A DNA stretch of 32,000 nt from Sinorhizobium meliloti. GTDB lineage: Bacteria; Pseudomonadota; Alphaproteobacteria; Rhizobiales; Rhizobiaceae. The stretch lies in assembly GCF_017876815.1 (NCBI RefSeq), contig NZ_JAGIOS010000004.1, positions 60,001 to 92,000 of the forward strand, written 5' to 3'. This document shows, in pieces, positions 1,337-30,886 of the stretch (its first letter is position 1; each line of letters begins with the position of its first letter). Under the pieces are notes generated by a model that was not told where the DNA came from, did no database searches, and saw nothing but the letters and a program-made list of their open reading frames with translations. The position numbers were made by a program, and so were the translations under genes.

Positions 1337-1483
1337 GCCGACAAGCCATCAAGCGGATACTTTCCCTGGCCGACGGCGAAAGAAGGAGTTGCGCATCTGA
1401 CGCAGGCTCAGCTTTCGATGCTTGTCGAAGGGATTGATTGGCGTCGACCGGCGTGGACTTCCGCTCCAGCTCGGACCGGCTAA
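1337..1483 (+). pseudogene. tnpB: IS66 TnpB (Orf2) C-terminal fragment
   Basis: The translation ..SGYFPWPTAKEGVAHLTQAQLSMLVEGIDWRRPAWTSAPARTG* has the GIDWRxP tail typical of IS66 Orf2. An in-frame TGA lies at 1331-1333. Confidence 0.7.
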
Positions 1484-1546
1484 GAGCTTTATTTTGCTTG
1501 AAAATCTGGGCAAAATGCTAGCGCTTCAGGCGCAAATCGGCTAGGT

Positions 1547-2898
1547 TTGCGGTCATGGAAACGACGTCGCTGGACAGTCGTGACGAAGTATCTGCATTGC
1601 GCGCTCTTCGCTGAACAGGCGGCGAAACTTGAGAGCCAAGAAGCCGAAGTCAGCAAGCGCGACTCCATTATCGGTCTTCTACGCGCACAGTTGGAACTGC
1701 TCCGCCATCGGCAGCACGGTCCTTCCTCTGAAAAGATCGACCGGAAGATCGAGCAATTTGAACTGATGCTGGAGGAGATCGAGGCCTCCCGTGCCGAGGC
1801 TGAGATGCGTTCTGGCAAGAACCCTTTACCGGAGCTGGACGACGCATTCGAGAAGCCGAAGCGCAAACCGTTGCCCGATGGTCTTCCAACCGAAGAGCGG
1901 GTCTATGCAGCGCCCTGCAATTGTCCGACGTGTGGTGGCGCATCGTTCCTGAAGGCCGCCGACAAGGTCGTTCAGGTGATGGAGCACGTGCCGGCGTCCG
2001 TTAAGGTTGTCCGCCATGTCGAGAAGCGCATGATCTGCAGGGACTGCGATACGACGGTATCCGGCGAAATGCCTACCTTGCCGATCGAGCGAGGCAAGCC
2101 CGGACCGGGCTTGCTCGCGCATATCATGGTCGCCAAGTTCGACGATCACATTCCGCTCTATCGTCTATCCGAGATGTACGACCGGCTGGGAATAGACATC
2201 TCCCGCTCCGTCATGGCGGACTGGGTGGGCCGTGTGTCCGTTCTGCTTGCGCCGCTCATCTTGCTGATTAGAGCGCATATCGCAGCGGTCGACCGAATAC
2301 ATACGGATGATACCCCGGTCGATGTTCTCGACCCAGGGCGAGGAAGGACCAAAACCGGCAGGGTCTGGGTCTACGTCTTCGATGGTAGCGGCTACCAAGA
2401 TACCACTCCCGGAGCCATTGCCTAATACTATAGCCCCGACCGTAAGGGCGCGCATCCGGCCGACCATCTCGCAAACTTCAGCGGTGTGATGCATGCCGAT
2501 GGCTATGGTGGTTACAAGAAGCTCTACGGCAACCAGATCGTCGAGGCCCCCTGCATGGCGCATGTGCGCTGCAAGTTCCATGATGTGATCAAGCTGAAGC
2601 CATCCCCGATCGCCGACGAAGCGCTGTCGCGCATCGGTGCGCTCTACGATATTGAGGATCGTATCCGCGGGATGTCGGCTGACCAGCGGCGTACACTGCG
2701 CCAGCAACATGCCAGGCCCATTCTGGCGGATCTCAAGAGCTGGATAGAAGAGACGCTTTCGACGCTGCCACACAAGCAGAAGCTGGCCGAGGCAATGCGA
2801 TATGCCCTCTCGCGATGGGCAGCATTGAGCGTTTACATCGACGATGGCCGTGTCGAAATCGATAACAACATAGCTGAACGAGCCATGCGTCCGCTTGG
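1547..2898 (+). pseudogene. tnpC: IS66 transposase TnpC of element A, 5' part
   Basis: The translation shows CPxCGG..CRDC zinc-finger-like motifs, ..HIPLYRLSEMY.. and ..HTDDTPVDVLDPG..GRVWVY... There is an in-frame TAA at 2423-2425. Reading stops making sense after ..NNIAERAMRPLG at 2898, and the sequence continues exactly at 12594 (..IGRKNWLFAGSDKGG..). Confidence 0.85.
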
Positions 2899-2926
2899 CG
2901 GGCCTGAGTCATTACGCACTCCTTCT

Positions 2927-4986
2927 TTAAGTATCTGTAAACATTGGAAGCGTCTCCGCGTCGGCGATGTGACACGGGCGCGCCTTTCGGGCTATCGCGG
3001 CTTGGACCGTCGCAGAAGCCAGGTCGCTGGCCCGGATTTGGTACGGCGCGCCGGGAACCACCTGCTCAGCAGACAACATCTTCGTCTTGATCAGGTGGCG
3101 TATCCGATGGTTGGTAACGCCCAAGGCCGCCGCAGCCTCTGTCATGGTCATCCACTCGCCGTCCTTGTCTGCTGATTTGTACGCGTGGATTGCGCGTACG
3201 CGCCTTACAGAAGCGACACGGTGTGCCGTCCAGGTTTTTCCTTGCCCCGTGGGCATGCCCATTCGATTGAGCGACGCGGCGATATGTTCATCCGACCAGC
3301 GCCCAGCCATGCTGCGCATCACCCCCAGCGCATCCTCCGTGGTGGCACAACCGTGCTCGCCGCTCTGGGGTTTGCGTACTTTTAGCTCTGAATGCTGACC
3401 ACCCTTCCAATGGATCGTCAGCACCACCTCACGCACCGCATCGTCGACATCAACGACAATGTCGGCAATCATGGTACGGAGCAATTGCTGGCGCGCGCGC
3501 ATGGTCACATCGGGTGAATCCCAGGCAGCCTGTAGATTATCGGCAAGGTTCGTGAAGGTGTCTGGGTCGACCTCGATGGTCGAAGGACTGTCGGCAGGCT
3601 TGCGCACTTCCAGGTCTCGCACGCGGCGTAACGCAGTCTCCCAATTCTTCTCAAGCTGCGCAGCAATCAGACGGTTGTCGGGGTCACATGCCGCATAGCG
3701 CCGCTCGGCAAGGCTAGCCTCGTAGCGGGCCTGCCGCAGTTCCAAATCGTGAATGTGGCGCTGATCTTCCTGTCGCTCCCGGTGCATCCGCTCTGCTTCA
3801 AAGGTCGCCTCGATTGCTAACGGTTCTACCGCGCGCAACAACTCGCGCGCAACCGCCGCGTCGACCCGCGGGCCGCCGAACGTCATGCATCGCGGCAAGC
3901 CCATCATCAGATTTGGCTTGTCGCAGCGATAGACCGGCCGACTTTGCGGATTGCCCGTATAGGCAACACTTAGTCGCCGCCCACACCGTCCGCAGGTCAG
4001 TAGACCCGATAATAGCGCCTTGCCGCCGCGGCCCGATTTGGTCCCGCCCGAGCGGCCATAATTGTTAAGCGCCAGTTGCTGTTGGTTGCGCTCGTACTCG
4101 TCCCAGGTGATGTAACCTTCGTGATGGTCTCTGATCATTACCTCCCACGTGCCAGCCGGCTTGCCGTGCCCGTAAGTCCGCCGCGCCCGGCCATCGACGT
4201 TGGCAGTCCGCTTCTCGCTCTTTCCATAAACATAGACGCCGGCATAGAAGGGGTTTTTGAGCATTACGGTAGCGGACTGGCGTCCAGACGAAGCTGGTCA
4301 TGCGACCTTCATCGGACGGCCGTGGGAAATGGACCTGATCCTTCGTCATCGACAGCAGCACCTGACGTGCACTTCCAAGCTCATGGAAGCGGGTGAAGAT
4401 GGATCGGATTACCTCCTGCAGACGCAGATCAGGATCAAGCCCGAGCCCGGCCTCTCTATGCCAGATGTAGCCGAACGGTACAGAAAGGCGCAATTCGCCG
4501 CGCCGCGCCTTCGATCTGGCGGCATCGAGCATTCGGGCTCTTAGCACACCCAATTCAAACTCGCTGATACTGCCCTTCATGCCCAGTAGCAGACGATCGT
4601 TGGGCCGACATGGATTGTAGACACCGTCATGGTCTATGACGCGGGCTTCAACGAGACCGCATAGTTCGAGCAGATGGTGCCAGTCGCGGCCGTTGCGTGC
4701 GAGCCGTGAGGCATCGAAACACAAAACGGCACCAACTTTGCCGGCGCACAACAAGGCGACGAGACGATCAAAGCCGGGGCGTGCAACCGTTCCGCTGGCA
4801 GAGCGTCCGAGGTCGTCGTCGATGACCTCAATGTCGCCGAAGCCGCGTTGTCGCGCGACGTCAACAAGATCATACTGGTCGCTGGCTTTCCAGATTGGTC
4901 ATGACCTGCGACTGAGTGGATTGCCGCACATAAACGACTGCCTTGCGCGCGAGTAGCGCTGCCGGAATTAAGTCAGTGCTGGTCAT
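2927..4986 (-). pseudogene. Large serine recombinase of copy X, with at least two frameshifts
   Basis: The start reads MTSTDLIPAALLARKAVVYVRQSTQSQVMTNLESQR, and a frameshift near 4885 precedes QYDLVDVARQRGFGDIEVIDDDLGRSASGTVARPGFDRLVALLCAGKVGAVLCFDASRLARNGRDWHHL... A second shift lies near 4270 before MLKNPFYAGVYVYG..HEGYITWDEYERNQ..CGRCGRRL... It is colinear with the intact 696-aa paralog at 7540-9630. Confidence 0.85.
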
Positions 4987-5127
4987 CGTTGAGCTCCTCG
5001 ACGACCAGACCGGCAGCCTGCATCAGCAGGCAAGCCAGTGTTGATGTCGCCTGCTTGCGCTCTTTGTCGCTCAGTCCGTCGAGTGTTCGCGCCTTGAATA
5101 TCAGGTCGAGCTGTCGGCCCGACGCCG
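4973..5127 (-). pseudogene. C-terminal part of small ORF b of copy X, cut by IS66-B
   Basis: The translation ..GRQLDLIFKARTLDGLSDKERKQATSTLACLLMQAAGLVVEELNDDQH* is homologous to the tail of ORF b in copy Y (..DQLVLELERQ..GLVETLADLLLEALE..DDHEDHV*). The N-terminal 12 codons lie at 12279-12252. Confidence 0.5.
5120..5127. repeat. 8-bp target-site duplication of IS66-B (CGACGCCG), left copy
   Basis: CGACGCCG immediately precedes GTAAGCG at 5128, and an identical octamer lies at 12244-12251 just beyond the other terminus. IS66-family elements are known to make 8-bp duplications. Confidence 0.85.
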
Positions 5128-5149
5128 GTAAGCGCTCATTTCCATGCGC
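5128..5149. repeat. IS66-B terminal inverted repeat (tnpC-proximal end)
   Basis: GTAAGCGCTCATTTCCATGCGC is identical to the reverse complement of the other end. Confidence 0.85.
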
Positions 5150-5198
5150 GTTGACGCGGCCCGTTTGACCGGGGTCGCTGTGCGACGGCTGCATTGGA

Positions 5199-6818
5199 TC
5201 AGGCAGCGGCTGCTTTGGTGAAGTTGAAGGGCAAGAGATCGGTGATGTCAGTATCTGTTGCGCGCTGTGGCAATTCACTAAGCACGTGGCGCAAGTAGGC
5301 CAAGGGCTCGACGCCGCAGGCGCGACAGGTCAGCATGATGCTGTAGACGACAGCGCTGGCCCTGGCTCCCTCCACGGTATCGCTGAACAGCCAGGATTTT
5401 CTTCCAGTGGCAAAAATCCTGATATCGCGTTCGAGAAGGTTGTTGTCGATCGACATCCTGCCGTCTTCGGTGTAGCGCGTCAGGTATTCCCACTGGTTCA
5501 GGGTGTAGGATACGGCGTCGCCGATCTTGCTATCGGGCAAGACCTTCGGCGCGATGTCATCGAGCCATGCCTTGAGAGCGATCAGGATGGGGACGCTGTG
5601 TTGTTGGCGGAAACGGCGGATGCAGTCGGCTTGCGTTTCGCCAACTTCCGGCTTTTCGTTCTTGGCTTGGCTTTCAATCCGGTAGAGCTGCTCGAAGAAC
5701 TTCAGCGCCTGCTCCGGCGGTCCGCCGCCTTTCTTCCTTGTCTTCAGAGCATCGATGAAGCGACGCCTCGAATGGGCCATACACCCAATATGGGTCGCTC
5801 CTGCCAGAGTGCGCCAGGCGGTGTAACCATCGCTCATCAATATGCCGCGGTAGTCGCCGAGGAAGGCCTGCGGATAAATCTGGCCGCGGCCGGGTTGATA
5901 ATCGAGCAGCACGATCGGCTCGCCGCTGTCTTCACCGCTCCTGTATGCCCACATGAAGGATGTGCTGGTGGCCTCCCTGTCCTTTTCCTTCAGCACCTGG
6001 ACCGTTGTCTCGTCACCATGGATCAGCGGTTGTGAACGAAGCCGGAGCTTCAGCGCGTCATAGATGCGAGAGAGATGCCTCTCGCTCGAGCCGATCACCC
6101 AGTGACCCAAAGCACCGCGGCTGACGGGAACGCCGGCGCGCTCGAAGGCCTGGGCGAGACGGTAGAGCGGCGTGCCGTCGATGTATTTGTGGACCAGTGC
6201 AAATGCCAGCGTCGAGGCCGTGGCGATGCTGCCCGGCAAGGGCTGCGCGGGCATTGGCGCGAGAACGACAGGCGTGTTGATGCCGGTCCGGTCGCAATGG
6301 CGGCAGGCGTACTTGAACCGCACATTCTGCAGGACCTTGGCCTTCACCTCGATATGGAGCTGCTCGGTGACGGCCTCACCCATGCGATGCATCTGATGAC
6401 GGCAGCAAGGGCAGGCCTTCTGGCCGTCGGCAAGGTCATACTCGACACGCTCGCGCGGCAGGTGTTCCGGCAGGGGCTTGCGGCCACGCTTCTTGCCCTC
6501 CGGTTTCTCGATCGTCGCAAAACCGGTTTCCGGCAGGTCGACGACCTCGCCATCTTCTCCGCTGGCGTCGTCTTCATCGGCAACCTGCTCGGCTTCATCG
6601 AAGAGGCGGTCCACATGCTTTTCGCTCTTCGGCGCAAAACGATGCAGCCGCGCCAGCTCCAACTCTTCCTCGAGCTTGACCACGCGGGCGCTGAGCGCTT
6701 CTTTCTCGGCTTTCAGCGCGGCGATTTCGGCAGCATTTGCCGCCAACTGCGCCATCAGTTCTGCAACGCTTGGTTCGCCGGATCGAGTCATCGTAGTTTT
6801 GAATCTGAACCGCACCAC
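5199..6818 (-). CDS. tnpC: IS66 transposase TnpC of element B, intact (539 aa)
   Basis: This full-length ORF has a leucine-zipper-like N-terminus, CPCC..CRHC motifs, ..GDETTVQVL.., ..SIDNNLLERDIRIFATGRKSWLF.. and a conserved C-terminus. Confidence 0.9.
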   Translation of the reverse strand: MVRFRFKTTMTRSGEPSVAELMAQLAANAAEIAALKAEKEALSARVVKLEEELELARLHRFAPKSEKHVDRLFDEAEQVADEDDASGEDGEVVDLPETGFATIEKPEGKKRGRKPLPEHLPRERVEYDLADGQKACPCCRHQMHRMGEAVTEQLHIEVKAKVLQNVRFKYACRHCDRTGINTPVVLAPMPAQPLPGSIATASTLAFALVHKYIDGTPLYRLAQAFERAGVPVSRGALGHWVIGSSERHLSRIYDALKLRLRSQPLIHGDETTVQVLKEKDREATSTSFMWAYRSGEDSGEPIVLLDYQPGRGQIYPQAFLGDYRGILMSDGYTAWRTLAGATHIGCMAHSRRRFIDALKTRKKGGGPPEQALKFFEQLYRIESQAKNEKPEVGETQADCIRRFRQQHSVPILIALKAWLDDIAPKVLPDSKIGDAVSYTLNQWEYLTRYTEDGRMSIDNNLLERDIRIFATGRKSWLFSDTVEGARASAVVYSIMLTCRACGVEPLAYLRHVLSELPQRATDTDITDLLPFNFTKAAAA

Positions 6819-6845
6819 CGCGTCAACCGCAGAAGTTCAGAGCCG

Positions 6846-7046
6846 TCAGCCGGCGATCTGATATTGCCGCACAGGGTGGCGCACCATGGCGTCGATATCG
6901 ATGCCGTCGAGAATCCAGTGAAGCTGCTCAGTCGAAAGCGTCACCACCGCCGTCTCCCGGCGTGGCCATCTGAACCGATCTTCGGTCAATCGCTTCAGGA
7001 CCATCACAAAACCGGACCGATCGAAGAACAGGAGCTTCATCCGGTC
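6846..7046 (-). pseudogene. tnpB: IS66 TnpB of element B, C-terminal 66 codons (split by LSR copy Y)
   Basis: The translation is DRMKLLFFDRSGFVMVLKRLTEDRFRWPRRETAVVTLSTEQLHWILDGIDIDAMVRHP... Joined to 9810-9658 it gives an in-frame 117-aa TnpB, the normal size (the intact copy at 24479-24835 is 118 aa). Confidence 0.85.
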
Positions 7047-7126
7047 ACGCCAGCGACCGACATTCTACATACGGTTTTCGTTTTGCGACGATAGCCTATC
7101 CGTGGCATCCACTATTCGGCTGCAAG

Positions 7127-7543
7127 GTGCAGGTCTCGCGTTATCGTCGCGGCAAGACGCTGATGCGAATCCATACGGACGAGCGTCCCGATCATCTCTC
7201 CCGTGAGTTGCCGAACTGGATGTTTGACGAGACTTATTGCAGCGGCATGAGGCTTGGATCACCCGAGATCAGCATTGATGGCCTGAATGAATTGGCGGCC
7301 GCGTTGGCGTCGTTCGACGCGACTCAGGCAGGAGGCGCAAGATCTCGTCCTTCGAGGAAGAAGGAGAAGGGTGATGCGAAGCAGGCGACATCAAAATCGC
7401 GACCAACTCGTTCTGGAGTTGGAGCGTCAAAATCGTCAGGTTCCGGTGGTCAAGAACGTCAAAGGACTGGTGGAAACGCTGGCGGATCTTCTGTTGGAGG
7501 CTTTGGAAGCGAGCAGAACGGCGAAGACGGGAGGCGTAGATGA
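7127..7543 (+). CDS. Small ORF a of copy Y (hypothetical; conserved N-terminal WM-D---C-GM-LG motif)
   Basis: It starts with GTG, and its stop overlaps the recombinase ATG as ATGA (7540-7543). The N-terminal half (..LPNWMFDETYCSGMRLGSPEISIDGLNELAAAL..) is homologous to copy X (..AGWMVDPVVCAGMTMGLARVDLAALIELNGL..). The C-terminal half is low-complexity R/G/S and may be out of frame. Confidence 0.4.
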   Translation: MQVSRYRRGKTLMRIHTDERPDHLSRELPNWMFDETYCSGMRLGSPEISIDGLNELAAALASFDATQAGGARSRPSRKKEKGDAKQATSKSRPTRSGVGASKSSGSGGQERQRTGGNAGGSSVGGFGSEQNGEDGRRR

Positions 7544-7562
7544 CCACGAAGATCACGTCTGA
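7374..7562 (+). CDS. Small ORF b of copy Y (62 aa, hypothetical; basic N-terminus, helical acidic C-terminus)
   Basis: The ATG at 7374 is preceded by AAGGAG (7361-7366). The product is MRSRRHQNRDQLVLELERQNRQVPVVKNVKGLVETLADLLLEALEASRTAKTGGVDDHEDHV. The same frame, the same Shine-Dalgarno plus ATG arrangement and a homologous sequence occur in copy X. It overlaps the recombinase start. Confidence 0.4.
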   Translation: MRSRRHQNRDQLVLELERQNRQVPVVKNVKGLVETLADLLLEALEASRTAKTGGVDDHEDHV

Positions 7563-9630
7563 CCATCTGGGCCGCGCCGCGGTGGTCTATGTCCGCCAGT
7601 CAACCATGGCGCAAGTGACGGGCAATCTCGAAAGCCAGCGCCGGCAATATGATCTGGCTGGCGCCGCCGCAACGACCGGGTTTGCATCGGTAACTGTGAT
7701 TGATGATGACCTTGGACGCTCAGGCTCAGGCAGCGTGGAGCGACCCGGGTTTGAGCGGCTTGTCGCGCTGGTCTGCTCAGGCAATGTAGGAGCGGTCTAC
7801 TGCATCGAGGCATCGCGTCTGGCGCGCAATGGGCGGGACTGGCATCATCTGATCGATCTGTGCGCGCTCACCGGTACGCTGGTCATCGATCCAGATGGCG
7901 CCTTTGATCCAAGGCTTGTCAATGATCGTCTGCTGCTTGGGCTGAAAGGCACGATGTCGGAGTACGAACTGAGCTTGATCCGTCAGCGCGGCATTGCCGC
8001 GCGCGATTCCAAGGCGGGACGCGGGGAGTTCCGGTTCATGTTACCTCCGGGCTTCTGCTGGAGTGAGGCGGGCAAGATCGAGATCGATCCGGACGAACAT
8101 GTGGCGGAGACGATCAAGCTCGTCTTTGCCAAATTCCGGGAACTGGGAAGTGGGCGACAAGTCTTTTTGTGGCTGCGGTCGGCCGATATCAAGATGCCCG
8201 TCGTCTTGCGCAACGTGGAAGTGCGCAAGCTCGTCTGGAAGGCGCCAGCTTATCATAGCGTCATGCAGACCCTCCACAATCCACTCTACGCGGGCGCCTA
8301 TGCCTTCGGAAGGCGAGCACAACGAACGTTGATCATCGATGGTCGCGCTCGCAAGGCCAACGGGCTGCGCAAGCCCAGGGATGATTGGAGTGTATTGCTG
8401 CGCGACAATCATGAAGGTTACATCACCTGGCGGGAGTATGAAGAGAACCAGAAGCTTCTGACCGAGAACGCACACATGAAGAGGAATTGTGATCGCAAAT
8501 CGGCGCGCGGCGGCCGTGCCCTATTGACGGGACTGATGCGATGCGGCCGCTGTGGCCGAATGATGCGCGTCTTCTACGGCAGCGCAAAAGGCAACGCGCA
8601 TCGCTATCAGTGCCGCGGCGACGACGCTCGTGTGGGTCTTGGGCTTTGCATCGGAATTGGCGGCGTGAGGGTCGATCGTGCCGTGGCCACTCAGATTCTG
8701 GAAGCGGTTTCGGATCGCGCTGTCGAAGCGGCGATCTTCGCCTCGGATCAGGTCGAGCGGTCCGCAAGAGATGTTATAGCGGCAATTGAGCGGGACCTTG
8801 AAGGCGCACGCTATGAGGCGTCACTGGCCGGACGCAGATACGAGCTGGTCGATCCGGCCAAACGTCATGTCGCACGCGAACTGGAAGCCCGTTGGAACGA
8901 TGCACTGGAACGTGTGAGCGTGCTTGAGCGCAAGATCGAAGAATTGTCCGCGCTGTCGGCAGCACGTCCTGCAATTGATCGTGGTCGGCTTCTACAGCTT
9001 GCCCATGACTTACCGACAGTCTGGAATGCACCATCAACCGATACGCGGACAAAGCAGCGGCTCATCCATATTCTGGTCCAGGAGATCATCTGCGATCTCG
9101 ACGATACGACCAACGAGGCTGTGCTCTTGATCCATTGGACCGGCGGTCGCCATACCGAAGTGCGCGTGGCGCGGGTCAAGACTGGCCGATATCCGAGCGA
9201 CATGGCACCGCCCGCCGTAGAGGCGCTACGAAAGCTGGGCGGACATTGGCCAGATCGGGAGCTCGCAGTGTCCCTCAATCGGATGCTTTGCAAGACCGGT
9301 GATGGTGAGGGTTGGACGGCCGTGCGTGTCCGCGACATGCGCGAGCGGCTGGGCATTCCAGAATATGATCCCACAAAAGCGGGCAGTCCCGTGATTAGCC
9401 TGATGAAAGCTGCCGAAAAGCTCGGTATCTGCATCGGATCGGCCAAGAGCCTGGTGCAGAAAGGAATTCTACCTGCAACGCAGATCCTTCCAGGCTCGCC
9501 ATGGATGGTTCCCATAGAAGCACTAACGTCAGAGGCCGTTCTGATAGGGGTGCAGGGTGTGGTTGGGCGGCGGCCCAAGATTTATGAAGATTATCAATAC
9601 GATAAAGTTGTCAGATTGCCCGGACTCTAA
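7540..9630 (+). CDS. Large serine recombinase (696 aa), intact
   Basis: It has a resolvase-type catalytic N-terminus (AVVYVRQSTMAQV..ESQRRQY..DDDLGRSGS..IEASRLARNGRDWHHL), a recombinase domain (..NPLYAGAYAFGRR..), a zinc-ribbon-like CGRCGRMM..YQC, a long coiled-coil-like region and a C-terminal extension. Confidence 0.9.
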   Translation: MTTKITSDHLGRAAVVYVRQSTMAQVTGNLESQRRQYDLAGAAATTGFASVTVIDDDLGRSGSGSVERPGFERLVALVCSGNVGAVYCIEASRLARNGRDWHHLIDLCALTGTLVIDPDGAFDPRLVNDRLLLGLKGTMSEYELSLIRQRGIAARDSKAGRGEFRFMLPPGFCWSEAGKIEIDPDEHVAETIKLVFAKFRELGSGRQVFLWLRSADIKMPVVLRNVEVRKLVWKAPAYHSVMQTLHNPLYAGAYAFGRRAQRTLIIDGRARKANGLRKPRDDWSVLLRDNHEGYITWREYEENQKLLTENAHMKRNCDRKSARGGRALLTGLMRCGRCGRMMRVFYGSAKGNAHRYQCRGDDARVGLGLCIGIGGVRVDRAVATQILEAVSDRAVEAAIFASDQVERSARDVIAAIERDLEGARYEASLAGRRYELVDPAKRHVARELEARWNDALERVSVLERKIEELSALSAARPAIDRGRLLQLAHDLPTVWNAPSTDTRTKQRLIHILVQEIICDLDDTTNEAVLLIHWTGGRHTEVRVARVKTGRYPSDMAPPAVEALRKLGGHWPDRELAVSLNRMLCKTGDGEGWTAVRVRDMRERLGIPEYDPTKAGSPVISLMKAAEKLGICIGSAKSLVQKGILPATQILPGSPWMVPIEALTSEAVLIGVQGVVGRRPKIYEDYQYDKVVRLPGL

Positions 9631-9657
9631 CAGAGGGATGCATTATGAAACGCGCTG

Positions 9658-9810
9658 GCGGCGGCGATTGCAAAAGGCAAAGACCGCAGGCGCAAACGGG
9701 TCGAGCTCCATCGTCTCCTGCACCAGGACCGCAAGGCTGTTGATGCCGGCGCGGAAGTCGATCGGTTCGCGGTGCAGGTAGACCTTGAGATCAGCGCCCA
9801 GTCTGAACAT
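9658..9810 (-). pseudogene. tnpB: IS66 TnpB of element B, N-terminal 51 codons
   Basis: The translation MFRLGADLKVYLHREPIDFRAGINSLAVLVQETMELDPFAPAVFAFCNRRR then runs into the end of copy Y. Confidence 0.85.
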
Positions 9811-10249
9811 GGCCCAATGCTCCAATGACAGCCGTCAACGCATCCACATCCCTGCATTCCAGCGAAAGCTTCACGCCGTTTGGCAGCAACGCGCTGATTT
9901 TGGATAAACCTGACGGATGGCCCGTTTTCTCCAGTGATGCTCGTTGTTCTTCATCACACGTGACCGACATATCCAGCGAGCAGGTCCCGACAGGCAGGCT
10001 GCCGTCTGCTGCCACGACCGGGATAAACGCCGATCGTGGAGATACCGCCAGGGGGCCAGACTCCCTGGCCTCCTTGACCCACTTGCGCAGTAGGTTGGCA
10101 TTGATCCCATGCGTAAGCGCAAGGCCGGATATCGACACACCAGGTTCAAGGCAGGCCGCAACAAGCCGCGCCTTTGATCCTGGATCGTAGCGGCGTCGAC
10201 CATCGCGCCCCACATGCCGCACACGCAGTTTCTGCTCTTCGTCACTCAT
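9791..10249 (-). CDS. tnpA: IS66 TnpA (Orf1) of element B
   Basis: This 152-aa ORF has the HTH-like segment ..SKARLVAACLEPGVSISGLALTHGINANLLRKWVKE.. typical of IS66 Orf1. It overlaps the tnpB start. Confidence 0.85.
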   Translation of the reverse strand: MSDEEQKLRVRHVGRDGRRRYDPGSKARLVAACLEPGVSISGLALTHGINANLLRKWVKEARESGPLAVSPRSAFIPVVAADGSLPVGTCSLDMSVTCDEEQRASLEKTGHPSGLSKISALLPNGVKLSLECRDVDALTAVIGALGHVQTGR

Positions 10250-10308
10250 ATTTGGTGTCCACCTATTTTAAGTGGACACTTCATGCGGCAGAGGCATCAA
10301 CGAGAAAA

Positions 10309-10330
10309 GGCGCATGGAAATGAGCGCTTA
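10309..10330. repeat. IS66-B terminal inverted repeat (tnpA-proximal end), lacking its outermost base, which sits at 12243 beyond the intron
   Basis: The plus strand reads GGCGCATGGAAATGAGCGCTTA, followed by the intron GTGCGG. Confidence 0.85.
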
Positions 10331-10358
10331 GTGCGGCTGCAAAGCCGATGAAAGATAG

Positions 10359-12185
10359 TTGATGAAAGTTCAACACGGAGAAGAAGTGGCGAATCACTCT
10401 GACCCCGAGTCATGCGGCGCACATCGCGAGGTGTGCGTCGAAGCGTTGACAGGGGAAACCGGCAGGCCGGCCATTGAGCCGCGAAATGATCAATTCGGGA
10501 TGCCGACGCTGTTAAGCGAAGCGGAAGGCAACACGGTGCATGGCGTCAATCGCAAGCCATGCCCCGATCCCGCGCGGTCGGAGACCCTGTGCATGTCGGG
10601 AAGTCTTTCATACGGAAGCAGCGAGATCTCATCAGTGTCCAGTGCAAATGGACTGGACGGGGCTGGGAAGGTCGTTGATCATAATCCGGTCGTCAACGCT
10701 GATGAGAAGTCGGATACACCCATAGTACCGCAGAAGTTGCCGAACAAAGGAGATGATCCTGCGGAGGCAATGGAGGGAAGGGGTGTAATCGGAGGGAACG
10801 CCTTTGAGACTCCAGCGTGCCGGACGCAGAGCCGGATAAAACACGCTTCGATGGGGATCGAAGGTGTACGGGAAGCCGCCAAGCGGGACCCGAAGATGCG
10901 TTTCACGGCGCTGATGCACCACATCACTCCGACGCTATTGGTGAAGAGCTTCCATGCGCTGCGCAAGCAAGCGGCGAGCGGTGTGGATGGCGTGACGTGG
11001 TACGACTATGAGAAGACCCTCGAAGGGCGCGTGCACGAACTGCACCGGGAGATTCAATCCGGTGCCTATCGTGCTCAACCCTCCCGACGGGTCTACATTC
11101 CGAAGAATGACGGCAGGCTCCGTCCTCTCGGCATTGCAGCGCTGGAAGAAAAAGTCGTGCAGATGGCCGTCACCACGGTTCTGAACGCGATCTATGAGCA
11201 AGACTTCCTCGGCTTCTCATACGGGTTCCGGCAAGGAAGGGGCCAGCATGACGCGCTGGACGCCTTGTGGGTTGGGATCGACAAGCGGAAGATCAACTGG
11301 ATACTGGACGCGGATATTCGCTCGTTTTACGATGAAATCGATCACGAGTGGATGCTTCGTTTCCTGTCGCATCGAGTTGGTGACCGCCGGCTGATACGTC
11401 TGATCCACAAATGGTTGAAAGCGGGCACGATTGAGGATGGCCGCCGCGTCGCATCAACGCGAGGAACTCCTCAGGGCTCTGTAATTAGCCCGGTGCTATC
11501 GAATATCTATCTGCATTACGCATTGGATTTATGGGTCCAGCAATGGCGTACTCGAAATGCTAAAGGCGACGTGATCATTGTACGTTATGCCGACGACAGC
11601 GTGATTGGGTTCCAGTACGAAGGAGAGGCGCAGCGCTTCCTGCAAGCATTGCGGGAGCGTCTCGCTCAGTTTGGTTTGCAGCTACACCCGGAAAAGACGC
11701 GGCTGATACGCTTTGGGCGGTATGCTGCGCGAAACTGCCGGGAGCGTGGTATCCGCAAGCCAGAGACCTTCGACTTTTTGGGATTCACGCACTGCTGCGG
11801 CAGGCGGCGCAATGATGGGGGCTTCAAGATTGTCCGTCTAACGATCAAGAAGCGCATGCGCACGACGCTGGAGGCCATTCGGGGAACGCTTATGCGACGA
11901 CGCCATGAACCGGTGGCAGTAGTAGGTCGGTGGCTACGGCAAGTGTTACAGGGGTATTTGAACTACCATGCGGTGCCAGACAATCTGAGAAGATTGGGAG
12001 GATTCCGCTGGGAAGTTGGTCGCGCTTGGCGACACGCGCTGATGCGTCGGAGCCAACGACACCGGCTGTCTTGGGAGCGTTTCCAAAGGCTGCTTCGCAA
12101 ATACCTGCCACCGTGCCGCCTGATGCATCCGCATCCAGATGCTCGGCTTACCGTCACAACATCCGATAGGAGCCGTATGCGGTAG
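10359..12185 (+). CDS. Group II intron-encoded reverse transcriptase/maturase; the true start is probably internal (ATG 10770 or 10851, or a non-ATG codon near 10690)
   Basis: RT blocks are present (..RVYIPKNDGRLRPLGIAALEEKVVQ.., ..RGTPQGSVISPVLSNIYL.., ..IVRYADDSVIGF..), as is the maturase region (..FDFLGFTH.., ..GYLNYHAVP..). No HNH endonuclease tail was seen. The first ~140 codons run through intron domains I-III. Confidence 0.9.
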   Translation: MMKVQHGEEVANHSDPESCGAHREVCVEALTGETGRPAIEPRNDQFGMPTLLSEAEGNTVHGVNRKPCPDPARSETLCMSGSLSYGSSEISSVSSANGLDGAGKVVDHNPVVNADEKSDTPIVPQKLPNKGDDPAEAMEGRGVIGGNAFETPACRTQSRIKHASMGIEGVREAAKRDPKMRFTALMHHITPTLLVKSFHALRKQAASGVDGVTWYDYEKTLEGRVHELHREIQSGAYRAQPSRRVYIPKNDGRLRPLGIAALEEKVVQMAVTTVLNAIYEQDFLGFSYGFRQGRGQHDALDALWVGIDKRKINWILDADIRSFYDEIDHEWMLRFLSHRVGDRRLIRLIHKWLKAGTIEDGRRVASTRGTPQGSVISPVLSNIYLHYALDLWVQQWRTRNAKGDVIIVRYADDSVIGFQYEGEAQRFLQALRERLAQFGLQLHPEKTRLIRFGRYAARNCRERGIRKPETFDFLGFTHCCGRRRNDGGFKIVRLTIKKRMRTTLEAIRGTLMRRRHEPVAVVGRWLRQVLQGYLNYHAVPDNLRRLGGFRWEVGRAWRHALMRRSQRHRLSWERFQRLLRKYLPPCRLMHPHPDARLTVTTSDRSRMR

Positions 12186-12242
12186 TGCCGCACGTACGGA
12201 TCTGACCGGGGGGCGATGGGTAACCATCGTCCCTACCGGGAC
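12170..12242 (+). ncRNA. Group II intron domains V and VI (catalytic hairpin and branch-point hairpin)
   Basis: The folds were done by hand and are described under the intron feature. Confidence 0.7.
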
Positions 12243-12243
12243 C

Positions 12244-12251
12244 CGACGCCG
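12244..12251. repeat. 8-bp target-site duplication of IS66-B (CGACGCCG), right copy
   Basis: It is identical to 5120-5127. Confidence 0.85.
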
Positions 12252-12445
12252 GCGCCAGCGTATTGCGGGATCTCATCATCTTCCTCCTGAGTGATTCTAC
12301 GTCCACCTCGGAAGAGTGCAGGCTTGTCGCCGCCTGTGACCAGCCCGTTAAGTTCGATCAGCGCCGCAAGATCCACGCGTGCCAGACCCATCGTCATGCC
12401 GGCGCACACCACAGGATCAACCATCCATCCGGCAATCGAAACCAC
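12252..12445 (-). pseudogene. Small-ORF region (ORF a N-terminal part, ORF b first 12 codons) of LSR copy X, separated from the rest by IS66-B
   Basis: ORF a reads ..VVSIAGWMVDPVVCAGMTMGLARVDLAALIELNGLVTGGDKPALFRGGRRITQEEDDEIPQYAGAGVG. ORF b starts at AGGAGGAAGATGATG (ATG at 12279 or 12276) in the +1 frame: MMRSRNTLAPAS, continued at 5127. Confidence 0.45.
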
Positions 12446-12593
12446 GGCACCTGTCGGCCCTAAAACATGCAGAAATTGACCTGTCGCTCGTTCGTCGACG
12501 CGGCGAACGCTAACCTTTTGTCCAAAATATGGATGCCAGCGATAATGAACCTCGACTTCATCGCCGACATGGGCAGAATGAACGGGGGATGGG

Positions 12594-12814
12594 AATCGGA
12601 AGAAAAAACTGGCTCTTCGCCGGGTCAGACAAGGGCGGCGAGCGCATCGCCAATATCCTGACGATCATCGAGACTGCCAAACAACATGGCCTCAAATCCG
12701 GAGGCCTATCTCACAGACGTCCTGACCCGGATCCAGAGCCATTCAAAGGATCGGCTCCAGGAATTGCTGCCGTGGCAGTGGGCGCCGGCGAAAGACCGAT
12801 ACGAGGCTGCGTGA
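12594..12814 (+). pseudogene. tnpC: IS66 transposase TnpC of element A, 3' part
   Basis: The translation ..IGRKNWLFAGSDKGGERIANILTIIETAKQHGL is followed by a one-base frameshift (extra A near 12697). The expected tail NPEAYLTDVLTRIQSHSKDRLQELLPWQWAPAKDRYEAA* then ends at 12812-12814. Confidence 0.8.
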
Positions 12815-13119
12815 TGGCACGGTCGAGGTTCATCTACACGCTCAAAGAAGTCGCCGTCATGATCGGGGAGAATCTCGAATTAATCGAGGAGGTGACGGCC
12901 AACTCGGACAATATCGCCGAAGGCGAATTGGTTTATGTCCGCGATGGCAGTGAAGATGGCACCAAAGGCCTGACCGAAAATGGAATTGACGACCTTCGAG
13001 ATCTCCTGGCCGACATACGAACGTGGGATGGTGGAATCCGCCAGTTCCTCGTCGATGAACAATGCGACCTCGAGATGATCGAGCGCGTCATGGCAGATGA
13101 GGTGAAGCGCGTCCTATAG
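12814..13119 (+). CDS. Hypothetical acidic 101-aa protein, extra ORF inside IS66-A downstream of tnpC
   Basis: Its ATG overlaps the tnpC stop (TGATG, 12812-12816). It lies between tnpC and the IS terminus at 13164. The product, MARSRFIYTLKEVAVMIGENLELIEEVTANSDN.., matched no family I recognise. Confidence 0.45.
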   Translation: MARSRFIYTLKEVAVMIGENLELIEEVTANSDNIAEGELVYVRDGSEDGTKGLTENGIDDLRDLLADIRTWDGGIRQFLVDEQCDLEMIERVMADEVKRVL

Positions 13120-21618: not shown

Positions 21619-21805
21619 TGAACAGCGCGGATAAGTGGAATTCCTGCCTGTGTTTGGCTTAGATGCCGGAAACAGGAGATAGCATGACGAGACGACCGCG
21701 CCGGAACCACAGCCCGGCTTTCAAGGCGAAAGTAGCGCTTGCCGCGATCAGGGGCGAACAGACCTGGCGGAACTGTCGCAGCAATTCGACGTGCCGAACA
21801 GGTCG
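21619..21805 (+). mobile_element. IS3-family left end with a frameshifted orfA fragment
   Basis: A TG-initiated end (TGAACAGCGCGGATAAGTGG..) is followed by an ATG at 21684 encoding MTRRPRRNHSPAFKAKVALAAIRGEQT. A one-base loss precedes ..LAELSQQFDV-PN.. Homology stops near 21805. Confidence 0.6.
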
Positions 21806-21814
21806 CGTTTGTCT

Positions 21815-22139
21815 TCGACACTGGCACTTGGCCATCCTCGAAAGTAGGGAAAGCCGCTGGTCTGATGAACACATCGCGGCCACCTTAAACCGGATGGGCG
21901 ATTGCCCAAGGCAAGACCTGGGCGGCAAAGCGCGTCGGCTCAACACGGCGCGCGTGGAATTTGCCTGCCCAACAAGTTGTCCCGCGCGCTCCGTACCAGA
22001 TTAACGCCACGGATCTTCGCAATCTTCGGGTCGCCACTCGATGACGCCTAAAGGGCGCGCGTGGCAGTCCCCGCCGGAAACTCAAAAATCCAATGTTTGC
22101 AGTCACTTGAAGAGGGAGTGTGTAATGAATGCGACGTTG
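21815..22139 (+). pseudogene. Third copy (Z) of the LSR element: decayed 3' end of the recombinase gene plus the element terminus
   Basis: The translation ..AILESRESRWSDEHIAATLNRMG is followed by a frameshift, then ..GQGKTWAAKRVGSTRR.., a ~35-codon deletion, then ..QQVVPRAPYQINATDL.. and ..PMFAVT* at 22110. The terminus CCAATGTTTGCAGTCACTTGAAGAGGGAGTGTGTAATGAA is nearly identical to copy X (reverse complement of 2906-2945). Confidence 0.7.
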
Positions 22140-22172
22140 CAAAAACTCTGATGTCGCGCTCAAAGATGGGTA
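22140..22172 (-). pseudogene. tnpC: Scrap of a fourth IS66-family tnpC abutting the end of copy Z
   Basis: The minus-strand translation ..IFERDIRVFAT matches IS66-B TnpC (LLERDIRIFAT-GRKSWLF). Its nucleotide sequence differs from the IS66-A copy. Confidence 0.6.
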
Positions 22173-22295: not shown

Positions 22296-22859
22296 TCAGA
22301 ACTTCTGCTTTGCCCGCTTCGGCATAAAGTAGGTTCGGATATTGACGAGTGCTTCGGCGACGTCAGCAGCATCCTGGCTTGTCACTTTCCGTTTTGCCTC
22401 GCCGAGCTTGCGGATGGGTGCGATGATATCCCCAGTGACGGCATGACCACGAAGAACCGGCTGCCAAAGCCTCGGCGCGTATCCAGTTCCCAACAAAAAG
22501 CAGAGGTCCCAATCGAAGATATCAAAGGTCTGATCATCGATCCGGGTGAACCGGGGCCGGTGGTCTTTCGGTGTTTCGGAAAGGCTAGCCGAGATGCGGT
22601 TATATTCCGCAACAATGGTCTGTACGGCCCGATGCTCGGTCGTTTCCATCGGCAGGTTCAGGGCATCCGGACCGGTCAGTTCCGGGATCCATTTGCGTGG
22701 GTCGATGAACTTCGGTCCGATGATGAGAGCCGTAAGATAACCATCGAGACCGCTCATTGACCAGATTGGCGATGCTGGACGGCGTGCCCTGATAAACGCC
22801 TCGAACGCCTTTTCATCGAGCTTCGGTCGTGCCGTCGTCCCTTGGCTGTTCTGTGTCAT
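22296..22859 (-). CDS. UPF0149/YecA-like family protein, carried inside IS66-C
   Basis: The translation MTQNSQGTTARPKLDEKAFEAFIRARRPASPIWSMSGLDGYLTALIIGPKFIDPRKWIPEL.. matches the LDGFLTAL-type motif I recall for UPF0149 proteins. The ATG at 22859 overlaps the tnpC stop as ATGA. The stop at 22296 is 59 bp inside the IS terminus. Confidence 0.6.
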   Translation of the reverse strand: MTQNSQGTTARPKLDEKAFEAFIRARRPASPIWSMSGLDGYLTALIIGPKFIDPRKWIPELTGPDALNLPMETTEHRAVQTIVAEYNRISASLSETPKDHRPRFTRIDDQTFDIFDWDLCFLLGTGYAPRLWQPVLRGHAVTGDIIAPIRKLGEAKRKVTSQDAADVAEALVNIRTYFMPKRAKQKF

Positions 22860-24463
22860 GCCGCCCGTCGCTCCTGACGTGCAATGGCCTCGCGTTCGGC
22901 CTTCCAGGCCCATGGGAAGAGCGTATCCATCCGGTTCGCGGGCACCTTGCCCGAGATGATGCGCTCAAGCACATCGGCAAGCCAGACCTCGGGGTCAACA
23001 CTATTGAGCTTTGCTGTGTTGACGAGCGATGCCAGGACCGCGAAGGACTTGCCACCGCGTTCGTTGCCCACGAACAACGAGTTCTTCCTCGTCAGAGCCA
23101 CCGATTTCATTGAACGCTCGACCACATTGGAGTCCGCTTCGATCCGGCCATCCTCCAGGAAGGCTGCCAGCCCGTTCCAATGATTGAGCGCGTAGGAGAC
23201 GGCCTTGCCCAGCGCCGATTTTGACGACACCTCTTCGCTCAGTTCGGTGAGCTGGACCTTCAGTTCTCGCATGATGGGTGCTGTCTCGCGACGCCGTACC
23301 GTGAGCCGGGTATCGGCACTTTCGCCGCGCAGTTTCGCCTCGATGCGATAGACCTCGGCGATCCTGGCCAGGATCGACAGCGCCTCCGAAGAGCCGGTCA
23401 GCTTGACGACATCGACGAACTTGCGTCGCGCGTGAGCAAGGCAGAACGCCAGCCGCATGGGGGCGACATTGCTCTTCCCCCGGCGCTTGGCCAAGGTTTT
23501 ATAGGCCTGGTATCCATCGACCTGAAGTACGCCGGCAAACGACGACAGTTGCCCCTCGACCTCGCGAGCGCTGCGGCTTTCAGCAAAAGTATAGGCCACC
23601 GCCGGCGGCGCCGGACCATTCCATGGCCGGTCGTCGACCGCCTGCGCCCAGAGTTGACAAAGCTTGGTGCGTTTGCGTCCCGGATCGAGCCGCGGAAGCG
23701 GCGTCTCGTCACAAAACACCCTTGGCTGGGAGCGGATGAAGGCGGTAAGCGCATCGTAGAGAAGCTCGAGCCACCAGGCGACCCGCGTCACCCAGGCGCC
23801 AAGCGTGCCGCGATCGATGATCACGCCGCAGGAGGCAAGCATCTGCGCCTGGCGATGCAGCGGCAGATGCCAGGCAAACTTCGAAACGGCGATATGGGCT
23901 GCAAACGCCGTAGTCACCATGCCGCCGTCCATCACGCGCGCCGGTGCGGGCGCTTGCACAATGACGCTTTCGCAGGCCCGGCATGCATAGCGCGGCCGGA
24001 TCGTCCGCTTCACCCGGACAACCGCCGGCACGATGTCGAGCGCCTCACTGACGTCCGTGCCGATGCAATGAAGCTCGAACGAGCAGCACGGGCAAATCTT
24101 GCTCTCCGGCTCGATGAGCTCTTCATACCGTGAGAGGTGCTTGGGCAAACGGCCGATGTTGCGCGACGGCGATCGCCGCTCCTGTCTTGGCCCTTCAGCC
24201 ACGGGTGCAACATCGTCATTGGCCGCCTCGGGAATGTCGCTGAGATCGCCAAGCTCGAGCGTCGCCTGCGTCGGGTCGATCGCCGTCATCTTCTCCGATT
24301 TCGGTCCAAAGAGCTGACCCTCCAGGAAGGCAACGCGCGCCTTGAGGTCGGCATTCTCCGCATCGAGCGAGAGAATGATCCGGCTCAATTGGGCGGCATC
24401 CTGAGGTAAAGGGTCGGGTCGAAGCGGCATGGCTGACCCTAGCACATGTTCCTGAATCTTCAA
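22856..24463 (-). CDS. tnpC: IS66 transposase TnpC of element C, intact (535 aa)
   Basis: It has CPCC..CRAC motifs, ..CDETPLPRLDPG.., ..DSNVVERSMKSVALTRKNSLFVG.. and a conserved tail. Confidence 0.9.
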   Translation of the reverse strand: MKIQEHVLGSAMPLRPDPLPQDAAQLSRIILSLDAENADLKARVAFLEGQLFGPKSEKMTAIDPTQATLELGDLSDIPEAANDDVAPVAEGPRQERRSPSRNIGRLPKHLSRYEELIEPESKICPCCSFELHCIGTDVSEALDIVPAVVRVKRTIRPRYACRACESVIVQAPAPARVMDGGMVTTAFAAHIAVSKFAWHLPLHRQAQMLASCGVIIDRGTLGAWVTRVAWWLELLYDALTAFIRSQPRVFCDETPLPRLDPGRKRTKLCQLWAQAVDDRPWNGPAPPAVAYTFAESRSAREVEGQLSSFAGVLQVDGYQAYKTLAKRRGKSNVAPMRLAFCLAHARRKFVDVVKLTGSSEALSILARIAEVYRIEAKLRGESADTRLTVRRRETAPIMRELKVQLTELSEEVSSKSALGKAVSYALNHWNGLAAFLEDGRIEADSNVVERSMKSVALTRKNSLFVGNERGGKSFAVLASLVNTAKLNSVDPEVWLADVLERIISGKVPANRMDTLFPWAWKAEREAIARQERRAA

Positions 24464-24478: not shown

Positions 24479-24835
24479 TCAGCCCACTTTCGTCGGCCGC
24501 TTTACGACGTTCCGTTTAACCCGAGTCCAGTCGATACCGGCCAGCAAAAGCGAGAACTCTTGGCTACTCATCTGCATCGCGCCATCGCGGATCGGTGGCC
24601 AAACGAACTTGCCCGCCTCAAGCCACTTCGTCGCTAGGATCATGCCCGACCCGTCCCAATAAATGCAGCGCAGGCGATCGCACCGCTTGGCGCGGAACAC
24701 AAACACGTCACCACAGTAGGGATCAGCCGAAAGCGCTGACGCCACCAGCGCAACAAGGCCATTCATGCCGCGCCGGAAGTCGACAGGCTGCGTCGCCACC
24801 ATGATCTTCACGCCATTCGGCGAAAGTCCGATCAC
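24479..24835 (-). CDS. tnpB: IS66 TnpB (Orf2) of element C, intact (118 aa)
   Basis: The translation is ..VATQPVDFRRGMNGLVALVASALSADPYCGDVFVFRAKRCDRLRCIYWDGSGMILATKWLEAGKFVWPP... Confidence 0.9.
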   Translation of the reverse strand: MIGLSPNGVKIMVATQPVDFRRGMNGLVALVASALSADPYCGDVFVFRAKRCDRLRCIYWDGSGMILATKWLEAGKFVWPPIRDGAMQMSSQEFSLLLAGIDWTRVKRNVVKRPTKVG

Positions 24836-30859: not shown

Positions 30860-30886
30860 CGGAGCAAGTAGGAGATTAGAACCGCA

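Follow-up and report, generated by a model that had tools for sequence, protein, structure and literature searches.

A cargo-free 2.6-kb element encoding a large serine recombinase and integrated at codon 51 of IS66 tnpB, with a predicted gene split across its ends

Here, we analyzed a window of 32,000 nt from Sinorhizobium meliloti (contig NZ_JAGIOS010000004.1, positions 60,001 to 92,000 of the forward strand), in which an insertion sequence (IS) of the IS66 family, IS66-B, is interrupted by a compact element designated Y; two relatives of Y in the same window are designated X and Z. Our explanation, to which we give a probability of ca. 85%, is that Y is an autonomous and cargo-free mobile element, driven by its own large serine recombinase (LSR) and conservatively integrated through a 2-bp crossover within a site of ca. 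50 bp that spans codon 51 of the IS66 gene tnpB. We have high confidence in the element and in the chemistry of its integration; the circular form and its regulation are predicted from sequence comparison.

First, we established the limits of Y from an empty site. A previous sequence-only reading of this DNA had placed the element at 7047 to 9657; we joined 400 nt from either side of these boundaries and searched the joined sequence against plasmids. It matched uninterrupted IS66 copies on S. meliloti pSymA/pSymB over 800 of 800 nt in one piece, with up to 99.6% identity. The empty copies (L084 and L085) read CATCCGGTCA-CG-GCGGCGATTGC, versus CATCCGGTCA-CG-ccagcg... at the left junction in the window and ...gcgctgg-CG-GCGGCGATTGC at the right one. 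Given that CG is found at 7048 to 7049 and again at 9659 to 9660, compared to a single CG in the empty site, the insertion is 2,611 bp long and extends from 7050 to 9660 (with a single core copy counted), so the earlier boundaries were off by 2 to 3 nt. Y cuts tnpB after the second base of codon 51, leaving the 5′ part (codons 1 to 50 and the first two bases of codon 51) at 9659 to 9810 and the 3′ part (codons 51 to 117 and the stop codon) at 6846 to 7049, both on the minus strand. The proposal that neither duplication nor deletion of the target had taken place held, except that the 2-bp crossover sequence, CG, is present at each junction. Likewise, joining the flanks restored a 117-aa TnpB_IS66 protein (PF05717, E value of 5e-38), as had been anticipated, although codon 51 of the restored gene is CGT, with CG supplying its first two bases, and not the CGC of the join proposed earlier.

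The comparison of empty and occupied sites thus defined an attL core at 7048 to 7049 (bases 1 and 2 of tnpB codon 51 on the minus strand) and an attR core at 9659 to 9660. Next to them lie the left-end or P′ arm, CCAGCGACCGACATTCTACATACGG (7050 to 7075, plus strand), predicted from the attP consensus to bind the recombinase, and the right-end or P arm (9631 to 9658, plus strand), which includes a Shine-Dalgarno (SD)-like AGAGGGA and an ATG at 9645 to 9647, separated from the core by 11 nt. Arranged about the core, the ends make up an imperfect inverted repeat, with a perfect palindrome, CGCTGG-CG-CCAGCG, in the attP reconstructed for the window, and the geometry ATG-N11-core-N11-CAT was found wherever the ends of the loci described below could be anchored. 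The attP consensus and its information content were obtained over 42 unique sequences. For Y, the predicted attP is GGGATGCATTATGAAACGCGCTGG-CG-CCAGCGACCGACATTCTACATACGG, and the predicted target site in tnpB is CTTCATCCGGTCA-CG-GCGGCGATTGCAAAAGG. Megablast of positions 6800 to 9900 against 72,556 plasmids retrieved 138 records, nearly all from rhizobia and close relatives; where the whole unit was present, homology ran from window position ca. 7048/7056 to 9657/9660, and copies with DNA 95 to 99.7% identical to Y were found in differing contexts.

The only large gene of Y encodes an LSR of 696 aa (7540 to 9630, plus strand) with the Resolvase (PF00239; E value, 2.5e-21), Recombinase (PF07508; 1.8e-10), and Zn_ribbon_recom (PF13408; 1.5e-7) domains in this order; Pfam detected no DUF4368. 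The protein could not be assigned to any named family, since all such scores were far below the cutoffs. For instance, no NCBIfam equivalog was reached (the top match, XisF, scored 84 bits versus a cutoff of 375), matches to Ccr were weak, and the nearest solved structure, that of SPbeta SprA/YokA, gave an E value of only 1e-6. PHROGs returned a match to integrase (7e-55). In the databases, the genes of Y are labeled just “recombinase family protein” or “hypothetical protein.” The domains, the two small open reading frames (ORFs) analyzed below, and the right-end (3′) motif GCATTATGAA, kept in ca. 80 loci, confirm the early description of Y as an LSR gene with small overlapping ORFs and a conserved 3′ end.

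In order to put Y into a broader context, we scanned GTDB (one genome per species) with its LSR, which provided 349 relatives, and the best 80 loci of these 349 were fetched. In these 80 loci, LSR identity to Y ranged from 63 to 98%, and the hosts included Alpha-, Beta-, and Gammaproteobacteria, Verrucomicrobiota, Acidobacteria, and Gemmatimonadota. Despite this range, the length of the element was 2594 to 2625 bp throughout the anchored loci, with no cargo and in no case as part of a larger integrative element. There were also numerous stand-alone contigs of 2.5 to 2.7 kb, one of them at 252× coverage, indicating a multicopy repeat of that length. When the IS66 proteins of the window were used in tblastn searches, the LSR was found between TnpB residues ca. 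1 to 50 and ca. 52 onward, in both orientations, and the host tnpB genes were just 31 to 50% identical to that of the window.

Junction dinucleotides were read by anchoring on the conserved end motifs, which was possible at both ends in 58 loci. The core was equal at both ends in 52 of them (GG in 19, CC in 17, CG in 8, GC in 6, and CA and AG in 1 each). The reconstructed targets translate as G-x-(L/V)-(F/Y)-V-F-R-G-(R/K)-R-[G/R/A/P]-D-L-I-K-V-L-W, within which F-R-G-R-R-[G/R/A/P]-D-L-I-K-V-L-W is the TnpB motif of the target, and by our count, the insertion was in tnpB at the codon 51 site in 46 of 49 informative loci. Thus, the association with IS66 extends to the database copies, and their flanks can be joined into intact IS66 genes in other genomes, as seen in the empty sites and in the reconstructed TnpB targets. 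Together, the empty site, the equal cores, the constant length, and the single tnpB codon bear out the idea that Y moves by LSR-mediated site-specific recombination and not by DDE transposition.

Three insertions with equal cores (L064, L055, and L039) were off target, all of them in DNA resembling the tnpB site. One was in a ligase-like gene (translated by eye; ...VPGNRG|LWLKVKC...), another in the zinc-ribbon region of a different LSR (CGHCG|RKLHV), and the third in an ORF with NGRG|VKLLTW. These loci provide a natural series of pseudosites for Y-type recombinases.

The orientation of the insertions tracked the core. Elements with a GG core in a GGN codon 51 were in the sense orientation relative to tnpB and those with CC in antisense; in two loci where the target codon is CCN (L074 and L076), this pattern was reversed, and with the palindromic cores CG and GC, both orientations were seen. 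In all cases, the core accounted for the orientation of the insertion. In large serine integrases, the central dinucleotide alone dictates polarity. A direct comparison is provided by Y, which is antisense in the window, and the element in locus L001, which is in the sense orientation despite an LSR 97% identical and a tnpB 92% identical. Therefore, the antisense arrangement noted earlier for all three copies is accidental to this window and does not characterize the family. In two other loci with a GC core (L056 and L072), both flanks consisted of the same 5′ half of tnpB, inverted relative to each other, which is what would be expected if opposed copies in two IS66 elements had recombined, inverting the intervening DNA.

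Since the core sets the orientation and both orientations exist, Y is not simply part of a variant IS66. That it might be a passenger or integral module of such an IS, e.g., a resolvase or invertase moved only by IS66, is suggested by the fact that the element is nearly always within IS66. Furthermore, a plasmid of Mesorhizobium sp. AR07 carries two IS66::Y copies that are 98.3% identical over 4.8 kb, and some spread could take place through IS66 or by duplication; one of these copies is cut by the start of the record and the other is truncated, so that movement as a unit and independent site-specific insertion are indistinguishable in this pair. However, nearly identical Y-free IS66 copies match the joined flanks base for base, and Y has inverted-repeat ends of its own with a common 2-bp core, located inside tnpB and distinct from the inverted repeats of IS66-B. 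The opposite orientations in closely similar tnpB genes, the low identity among the TnpB proteins of the hosts, and the insertions outside IS66 in look-alike sites also speak against it. We consider this alternative extremely improbable and already effectively refuted.

Upstream of the LSR gene, Y carries two small ORFs, neither of which had a family match in Pfam, NCBIfam, or PHROGs. ORF2 (62 aa, MRSRRHQNRDQLVLELERQ...GLVETLADLLLEAL; 7374 to 7562, plus strand) is wholly inside the element, in a different frame from ORF1, whose tail it overlaps along with the initial 23 nt of the LSR gene. ORF2 is conserved, and gene calling on an independent contig also returned it with 62 aa. The body of ORF1 (7052 to 7543, plus strand) ends in a TGA that overlaps the start of the LSR gene (ATGA), and an overlap of this type (ATGA or TGATG) was present in 45 of 52 loci. 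Its conserved motif, R-H-S-A-Y...Y-(P/R)-W-H-P-L-x-G...R-E-L-P-x-W-M-x-D...C, begins at the extreme left end of the element, and the analysis of codon-position entropy showed invariant residues with variable third positions, which indicates that selection acts on the protein. In 27 of 46 unique sequences, including the window copy, there was no in-frame ATG, GTG, or TTG before the conserved Y22 of the stretch Y22-W-H-P-L-x-G29. The right end has a conserved purine-rich tract, and its ATG, followed by 11, 2, and 11 nt, is in frame with ORF1 once the ends are joined; the resulting junction-spanning ORF1 was open for 163 to 184 codons in 49 of 52 loci, and an SD-like motif with correct spacing preceded the ATG in 43 of 46 unique sequences. 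We therefore propose, with moderate confidence, that the start codon of ORF1 is the one in the right end, remote from the body in the left end, and that the gene would be complete only in an excised circle.

Several observations weigh against our explanation. Cores were unequal in 6 of the 58 loci. Possible internal starts of ORF1, i.e., GTG or TTG in frame ahead of the conserved motif, were found in 19 of 46 unique sequences. The AlphaFold2 model of ORF1, built with a 33-sequence alignment, was uninformative (mean predicted local distance difference test score of 54.7), and a promoter scan within Y detected none, although such a scan is uninformative for alphaproteobacterial promoters. The attP or circle junction was absent from two IUPAC scans of metagenome contigs and one of viral contigs. 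A synthetic attP of 202 nt, compared to plasmids by blastn, was covered to at least 80% in 0 of 63 records; all the matches ended at query positions 95 to 109, which confirms the predicted ends of the element. Given that it belongs to an inverted repeat (ATG...CAT), the right-end ATG could be kept only as a recombinase-binding triplet. Finally, some database proteins (P0129, P0144, P0155, and P0167) are fusions of the TnpB N terminus to ORF1, created by a frameshift or a short deletion, which hints at expression of ORF1 in some copies while integrated; they could represent decay or an alternative expression route from the tnpB start.

We rejected such in-frame fusions, with ORF1 starting in TnpB, as the normal state, because TnpB and ORF1 are in different frames in standard insertions and the database examples require additional frameshifts or deletions. 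A contig of 2,666 bp from Logan that could have been the circle (2,611 bp plus the k-mer overlap) was also discarded, since it corresponds to the element with 30-nt tnpB flanks.

Part of this evidence would fit an LSR-driven element in which ORF1 starts internally or in the flank, the right-end ATG and purine tract being a binding site only. The symmetric positions of ATG and CAT, the GTG and TTG codons, the gene callers (which place starts in the flank or make TnpB-ORF1 fusions), and the failure to observe the circle in the collections scanned all favor this version. On the other hand, it leaves without a possible start the majority of sequences, the window copy among them, and the upstream flank of antisense insertions can give no tnpB start. 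It is also at odds with the open junction frame, which by hand translation is kept in the X lineage in spite of only 44% identity, and with the regularity of the SD-like motif. We regard this version as the less likely one, though with an appreciable probability.

Under the explanation that we prefer, with an ORF1 split between the ends, Y would excise as a circle carrying attP, and the LSR would recombine this attP with the tnpB site of any IS66 copy. In each new host, a harmless landing pad would be provided by conserved coding sequence of an IS that is multicopy and spreads horizontally; the IS and its plasmids would transport the element, the IS being inactive unless TnpB is provided in trans. 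In the circle, the ribosome-binding site and ATG of the right end would be joined to the body at the left end, completing ORF1. Because the ORF1 stop overlaps the LSR start, translational coupling would raise the recombinase in the circle and lower it in the integrated state; a high level in the circle would favor reintegration, and a low level once integrated would favor stability. ORF2, intact throughout, is our leading candidate for a directionality factor or another accessory factor.

Next, we studied the other two copies in the window. X is divided into two pieces on the minus strand, namely, its 3′ two-thirds, comprising a frameshifted LSR gene and the right end (2899 to 5127, with the ATG at 2912 to 2910), and its 5′ part, with the left end and ORF1 (HSAHVGDEVEVHYRWHPYFGQ...; 12252 to 12593, core at 12592 to 12593). 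Its core is CC in the orientation of the element (GG at 2897 to 2898 on the plus strand), the geometry of its ends is the same as that of Y (ATG-N11-CC-N11-CAT), and ORF1 is in frame across the junction when translated by hand. In tblastn segments, the X LSR of the window is 38 to 48% identical to that of Y, with at least two frameshifts, and the gene is split by IS66-B, in agreement with the description of X as frameshifted, split, and about half identical. Joining its flanks restored TnpC of IS66-A across ...AMRPL-G-IGRKNWLF, as proposed, with the core supplying the first two bases of the Gly codon.

Four further X-type elements were found, in S. meliloti, R. johnstonii 3841, R. etli CFN42 p42d, and pRiA4, with IS66 tnpB or tnpC annotated alongside in all four plasmids. 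In the three with both junctions located, tnpC was interrupted in antisense at the same codon before (I/L)GRK(N/S)WLF, with cores CC/CC, GC/GC, and a mismatched CC/GC. The LSR of an intact X-type element is 43.7% identical to that of Y. On these comparisons, X and Z are a sister lineage of Y that targets IS66 tnpC and are not diverged copies of Y, as they had been considered. In two loci of the survey (L015, 6853 to 9841, and L059, 25 to 3576), a Y-type element in tnpB coexists with a second LSR gene, 40 to 42% identical to that of Y, beside or in tnpC, so that double occupancy, as in the window, recurs there.

Z (ca. 21720 to 22140, plus strand) consists of the decayed C-terminal remnant of an X-type LSR (blastx E value of 2e-7) and an X-type right end, with the ATG at 22125 to 22127 and the core position at 22139 to 22140. 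Its interpretation as a decayed 3′ remnant therefore stands, and its assignment to the Y type was rejected, given that both blastx and local alignment matched it to the X type (blastn of Z against X gave no match). The statement that all copies lie inside IS66 genes applies to Y and X, but it could not be sustained for Z, whose right flank matched tnpC with a nonsignificant E value of 0.34; its left neighbor, read by eye, is a fragment of an IS3-type orfA.

In one database record, “transposase number 4 for insertion sequence NGRIS-4e” is the name given to a Y-type LSR. We located NGRIS-4 of Sinorhizobium fredii NGR234 at positions 33949 to 37270 of pNGR234a (3,320 bp), with the gene order DUF5372, helix-turn-helix (HTH; HTH_28), small ORF, and LSR. 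All nine NGRIS-4 copies are reported to lie within other ISs. Its LSR is 36.8% identical to that of Y over 653 aa (36 to 37% to Y and X). Like Y, NGRIS-4 is small, has the LSR as its largest gene with small ORFs ahead, shows an equal dinucleotide (TT) at both junctions, and is inside a transposase gene, in this case at PQAK|GRVER; we read this as an rve-type catalytic motif, with Pfam finding only N-terminal HTH domains in the host gene. However, it is ca. 3.3 kb long with four ORFs, including an HTH protein, while Y is 2.6 kb long with two small ORFs and no HTH ORF. Its DUF5372 gene is entirely within the element, while ORF1 of Y is predicted to be split across the ends, and the target of NGRIS-4 is an rve-type DDE transposase instead of IS66 tnpB or tnpC. 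Comparison of the ORF1 profile with the DUF5372 protein of NGRIS-4 (hhalign) gave a probability of 72% and an E value of 3e-5 over 76 columns, Pfam being silent, so ORF1 may be distantly DUF5372-like. As far as we found, no description of recombinase-driven mobility, crossover, or orientation logic exists for NGRIS-4 in the literature.

Four relatives of the NGRIS-4 LSR were sampled. One split an IS21-like istA precisely where the rve core ends, another, from Rhodococcus, adjoined an IS3-like rve_2/rve_3 sequence, and a cyanobacterial one adjoined an IS4/5 DDE transposase ending in ...KRWVVE. The fourth (L094, 1642 to 5118), with an LSR 47% identical to that of NGRIS-4 and clear DUF5372 and HTH genes, split IS66 tnpB at profile position ca. 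50, about the same as Y, which suggests that distant relatives came to use this site by convergence or by inheritance. Judging from this small sample, the whole clade appears to live inside transposition genes. We tentatively consider, at somewhat less than even odds, that Y, X, NGRIS-4, and their relatives may form a single widespread and unrecognized superfamily of minimal LSR transposons, each lineage inserting into a highly conserved stretch of a transposition gene (IS66 tnpB, IS66 tnpC, IS21-like istA, IS3-like orfB, IS4/5 DDE, or rve-like), with, in Y and X, a split gene that, together with the coupled recombinase, would be fully expressed only from the circle.

The element always disrupts an IS66 gene, tnpB or tnpC; all three ORFs of IS66-family elements are reportedly required for transposition, and the relatives break catalytic motifs of other transposases. 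Along these lines, Y could be maintained mainly because it silences IS66, domesticated or to the benefit of the host, and not as a selfish parasite, which would be compatible with the mobility proposed here. Nevertheless, the element is distributed in the manner of a multicopy mobile element, with collapsed repeat contigs of 2.6 kb, numerous copies in a replicon, and spread on plasmids across phyla. Many of the copies are decayed, X and Z among them, and nothing ties Y to host regulation, so we find a role of this kind improbable. We give even less weight to the view that all copies are fossils, once mobile and now carried along only by IS66 and plasmids. In line with this view, both X and Z are dead, and the circle junction was not found in the collections searched. 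In contrast, purifying selection has kept the LSR, ORF1, and ORF2 of Y intact in dozens of lineages, and both the nearly identical DNA copies in different contexts and the closely similar elements in the two orientations argue for mobility.

To place the autonomous, LSR-driven element among known systems, we compared it with other serine recombinases. Tn4451/Tn4453 (TnpX) and Tn5397 (TndX) share with Y the use of an LSR as transposase, the 2-bp crossover, and the lack of target duplication. However, these elements carry resistance cargo and have relaxed targets, while Y is cargo-free and directed to one codon of one gene family. The LSR clade with multiple targets usually has DUF4368 (PMC10083194). 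Tn4451-type elements have a circular intermediate, while the circle of Y is predicted. In PMC13023037, the junction of the Tn4451 circle is described as creating a signal that expresses the recombinase (Lyras and Rood 2000, cited therein), and junction promoters are given as known for ICEclc and ICEKp1. This is the logic that we propose for ORF1 and the LSR, except that Y would split a coding sequence, start codon from body, and not a promoter.

The integrases of phiC31, Bxb1, and SPbeta (SprA), as well as CcrAB and XisF, resemble that of Y in domain architecture, a central dinucleotide that sets polarity, and a gene-specific site; their recombination of attP with attB is predicted for Y. However, integrases of phages and integrative and conjugative elements move tens of kilobases into single-copy host genes, while the LSR of Y would move only itself and two small ORFs into a gene of a multicopy mobile element. 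IS607 is also IS sized, has a serine recombinase, and makes no target duplication. Its recombinase is small, with an N-terminal DNA-binding domain, usually accompanied by a gene for a TnpB nuclease, and has little target specificity. In contrast, the 696-aa LSR of Y has an N-terminal catalytic domain followed by Recombinase and Zn-ribbon domains and is highly site specific, and Y has no IS607-type tnpB (the adjacent “tnpB” belongs to the unrelated IS66 Orf2 family, PF05717). Group II introns found in IS elements have a lifestyle similar to that of Y, using conserved sequence of a multicopy IS as a safe landing site, but by retrohoming instead of serine recombination.

No description of a Y-like element was found in the literature searched, including the LSR atlas of Durrant et al. 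and its supplements, and we came across no catalogue that lists one. The idea of an undescribed family holds to that extent, with NGRIS-4 of pNGR234a as a distant precedent. The kind of element is not new, since LSR transposons are known (TnpX and TndX) and NGRIS-4 is an old and little-noticed relative. What appear to be undescribed are the 2.6-kb architecture with two small ORFs, the targeting of a single codon of IS66 tnpB (tnpC in the sister lineage) across phyla, the link between core and orientation, and the split ORF1.

If this explanation is true, even ISs, the simplest parasites of bacteria, are exploited by hyperparasites of their own, which are dedicated to them, occur across phyla, and read the most conserved DNA of their genes; this bears on how IS activity is curbed. 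It would also explain many of the genes annotated as “recombinase family protein” or “hypothetical protein” and of the split tnpB and tnpC pseudogenes in rhizobial plasmids and metagenomes. A gene that integration breaks and excision restores would sense the state of the element in a very simple way, and a split ORF1 would do with a coding sequence what the junction-promoter switch does with a promoter. Recombinase engineering could draw on this family for a natural series of compact LSRs with defined targets of ca. 50 bp, a core-orientation rule, and natural off-target sites.

In the window, Y is part of a nest of mobile elements with four levels (1352 to 13119), in which X lies within IS66-A tnpC, IS66-B within X, and Y and a group II intron within IS66-B. 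The best database matches of this region were plasmids of S. meliloti. The nesting indicates the order of events, i.e., X inserted into IS66-A; IS66-B into X, killing it; and Y and the intron into IS66-B last. The 5′ part of IS66-A tnpC, the target of X, is at 1601 to 2898 and continues at 12594 to 12781 (plus strand; from the flank join). IS66-B (5128 to 10330, minus strand), besides the split tnpB, has tnpC at 5199 to 6818 and tnpA at 9791 to 10249. Its terminal inverted repeats are at 5129 to 5152 and 10307 to 10330, with its final base pushed to 12243 by the intron, and an 8-bp duplication, CGACGCCG, flanks it inside X (5120 to 5127 and 12244 to 12251). The group II intron (10331 to 12242, plus strand; Rfam RF02005 at 10365 to 10587 and RF00029 at 12168 to 12242; reverse transcriptase ORF at 10359 to 12185) starts with GTGCG, ends with GGGAC, and separates the final two bases of the terminal repeat of IS66-B (...GCGCTTA^C); it is in antisense relative to the IS66 genes. 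Two unrelated homing elements, Y and the intron, have hit the same IS66-B.

A third IS66, IS66-C, has an intact tnpB (24479 to 24835, minus strand) that reads AAG CGG TGC GAT at the target position of Y. The corresponding dinucleotide is TG, and this mismatch to an element with a CG core may explain why IS66-C is unoccupied. The 3′ end of IS66-C tnpC (22856 to 24463) overlaps by 58 nt a UPF0149 (YecA-like) ORF at 22296 to 22913 (minus strand), which may be a passenger or a neighboring gene next to IS66-C and the remnant Z. Finally, ctRNA_p42d (RF00489) and the S-element (RF00490), replication-control RNAs of repABC systems, were detected at 30884 to 31038, indicating that the window was probably drawn from a repABC plasmid.

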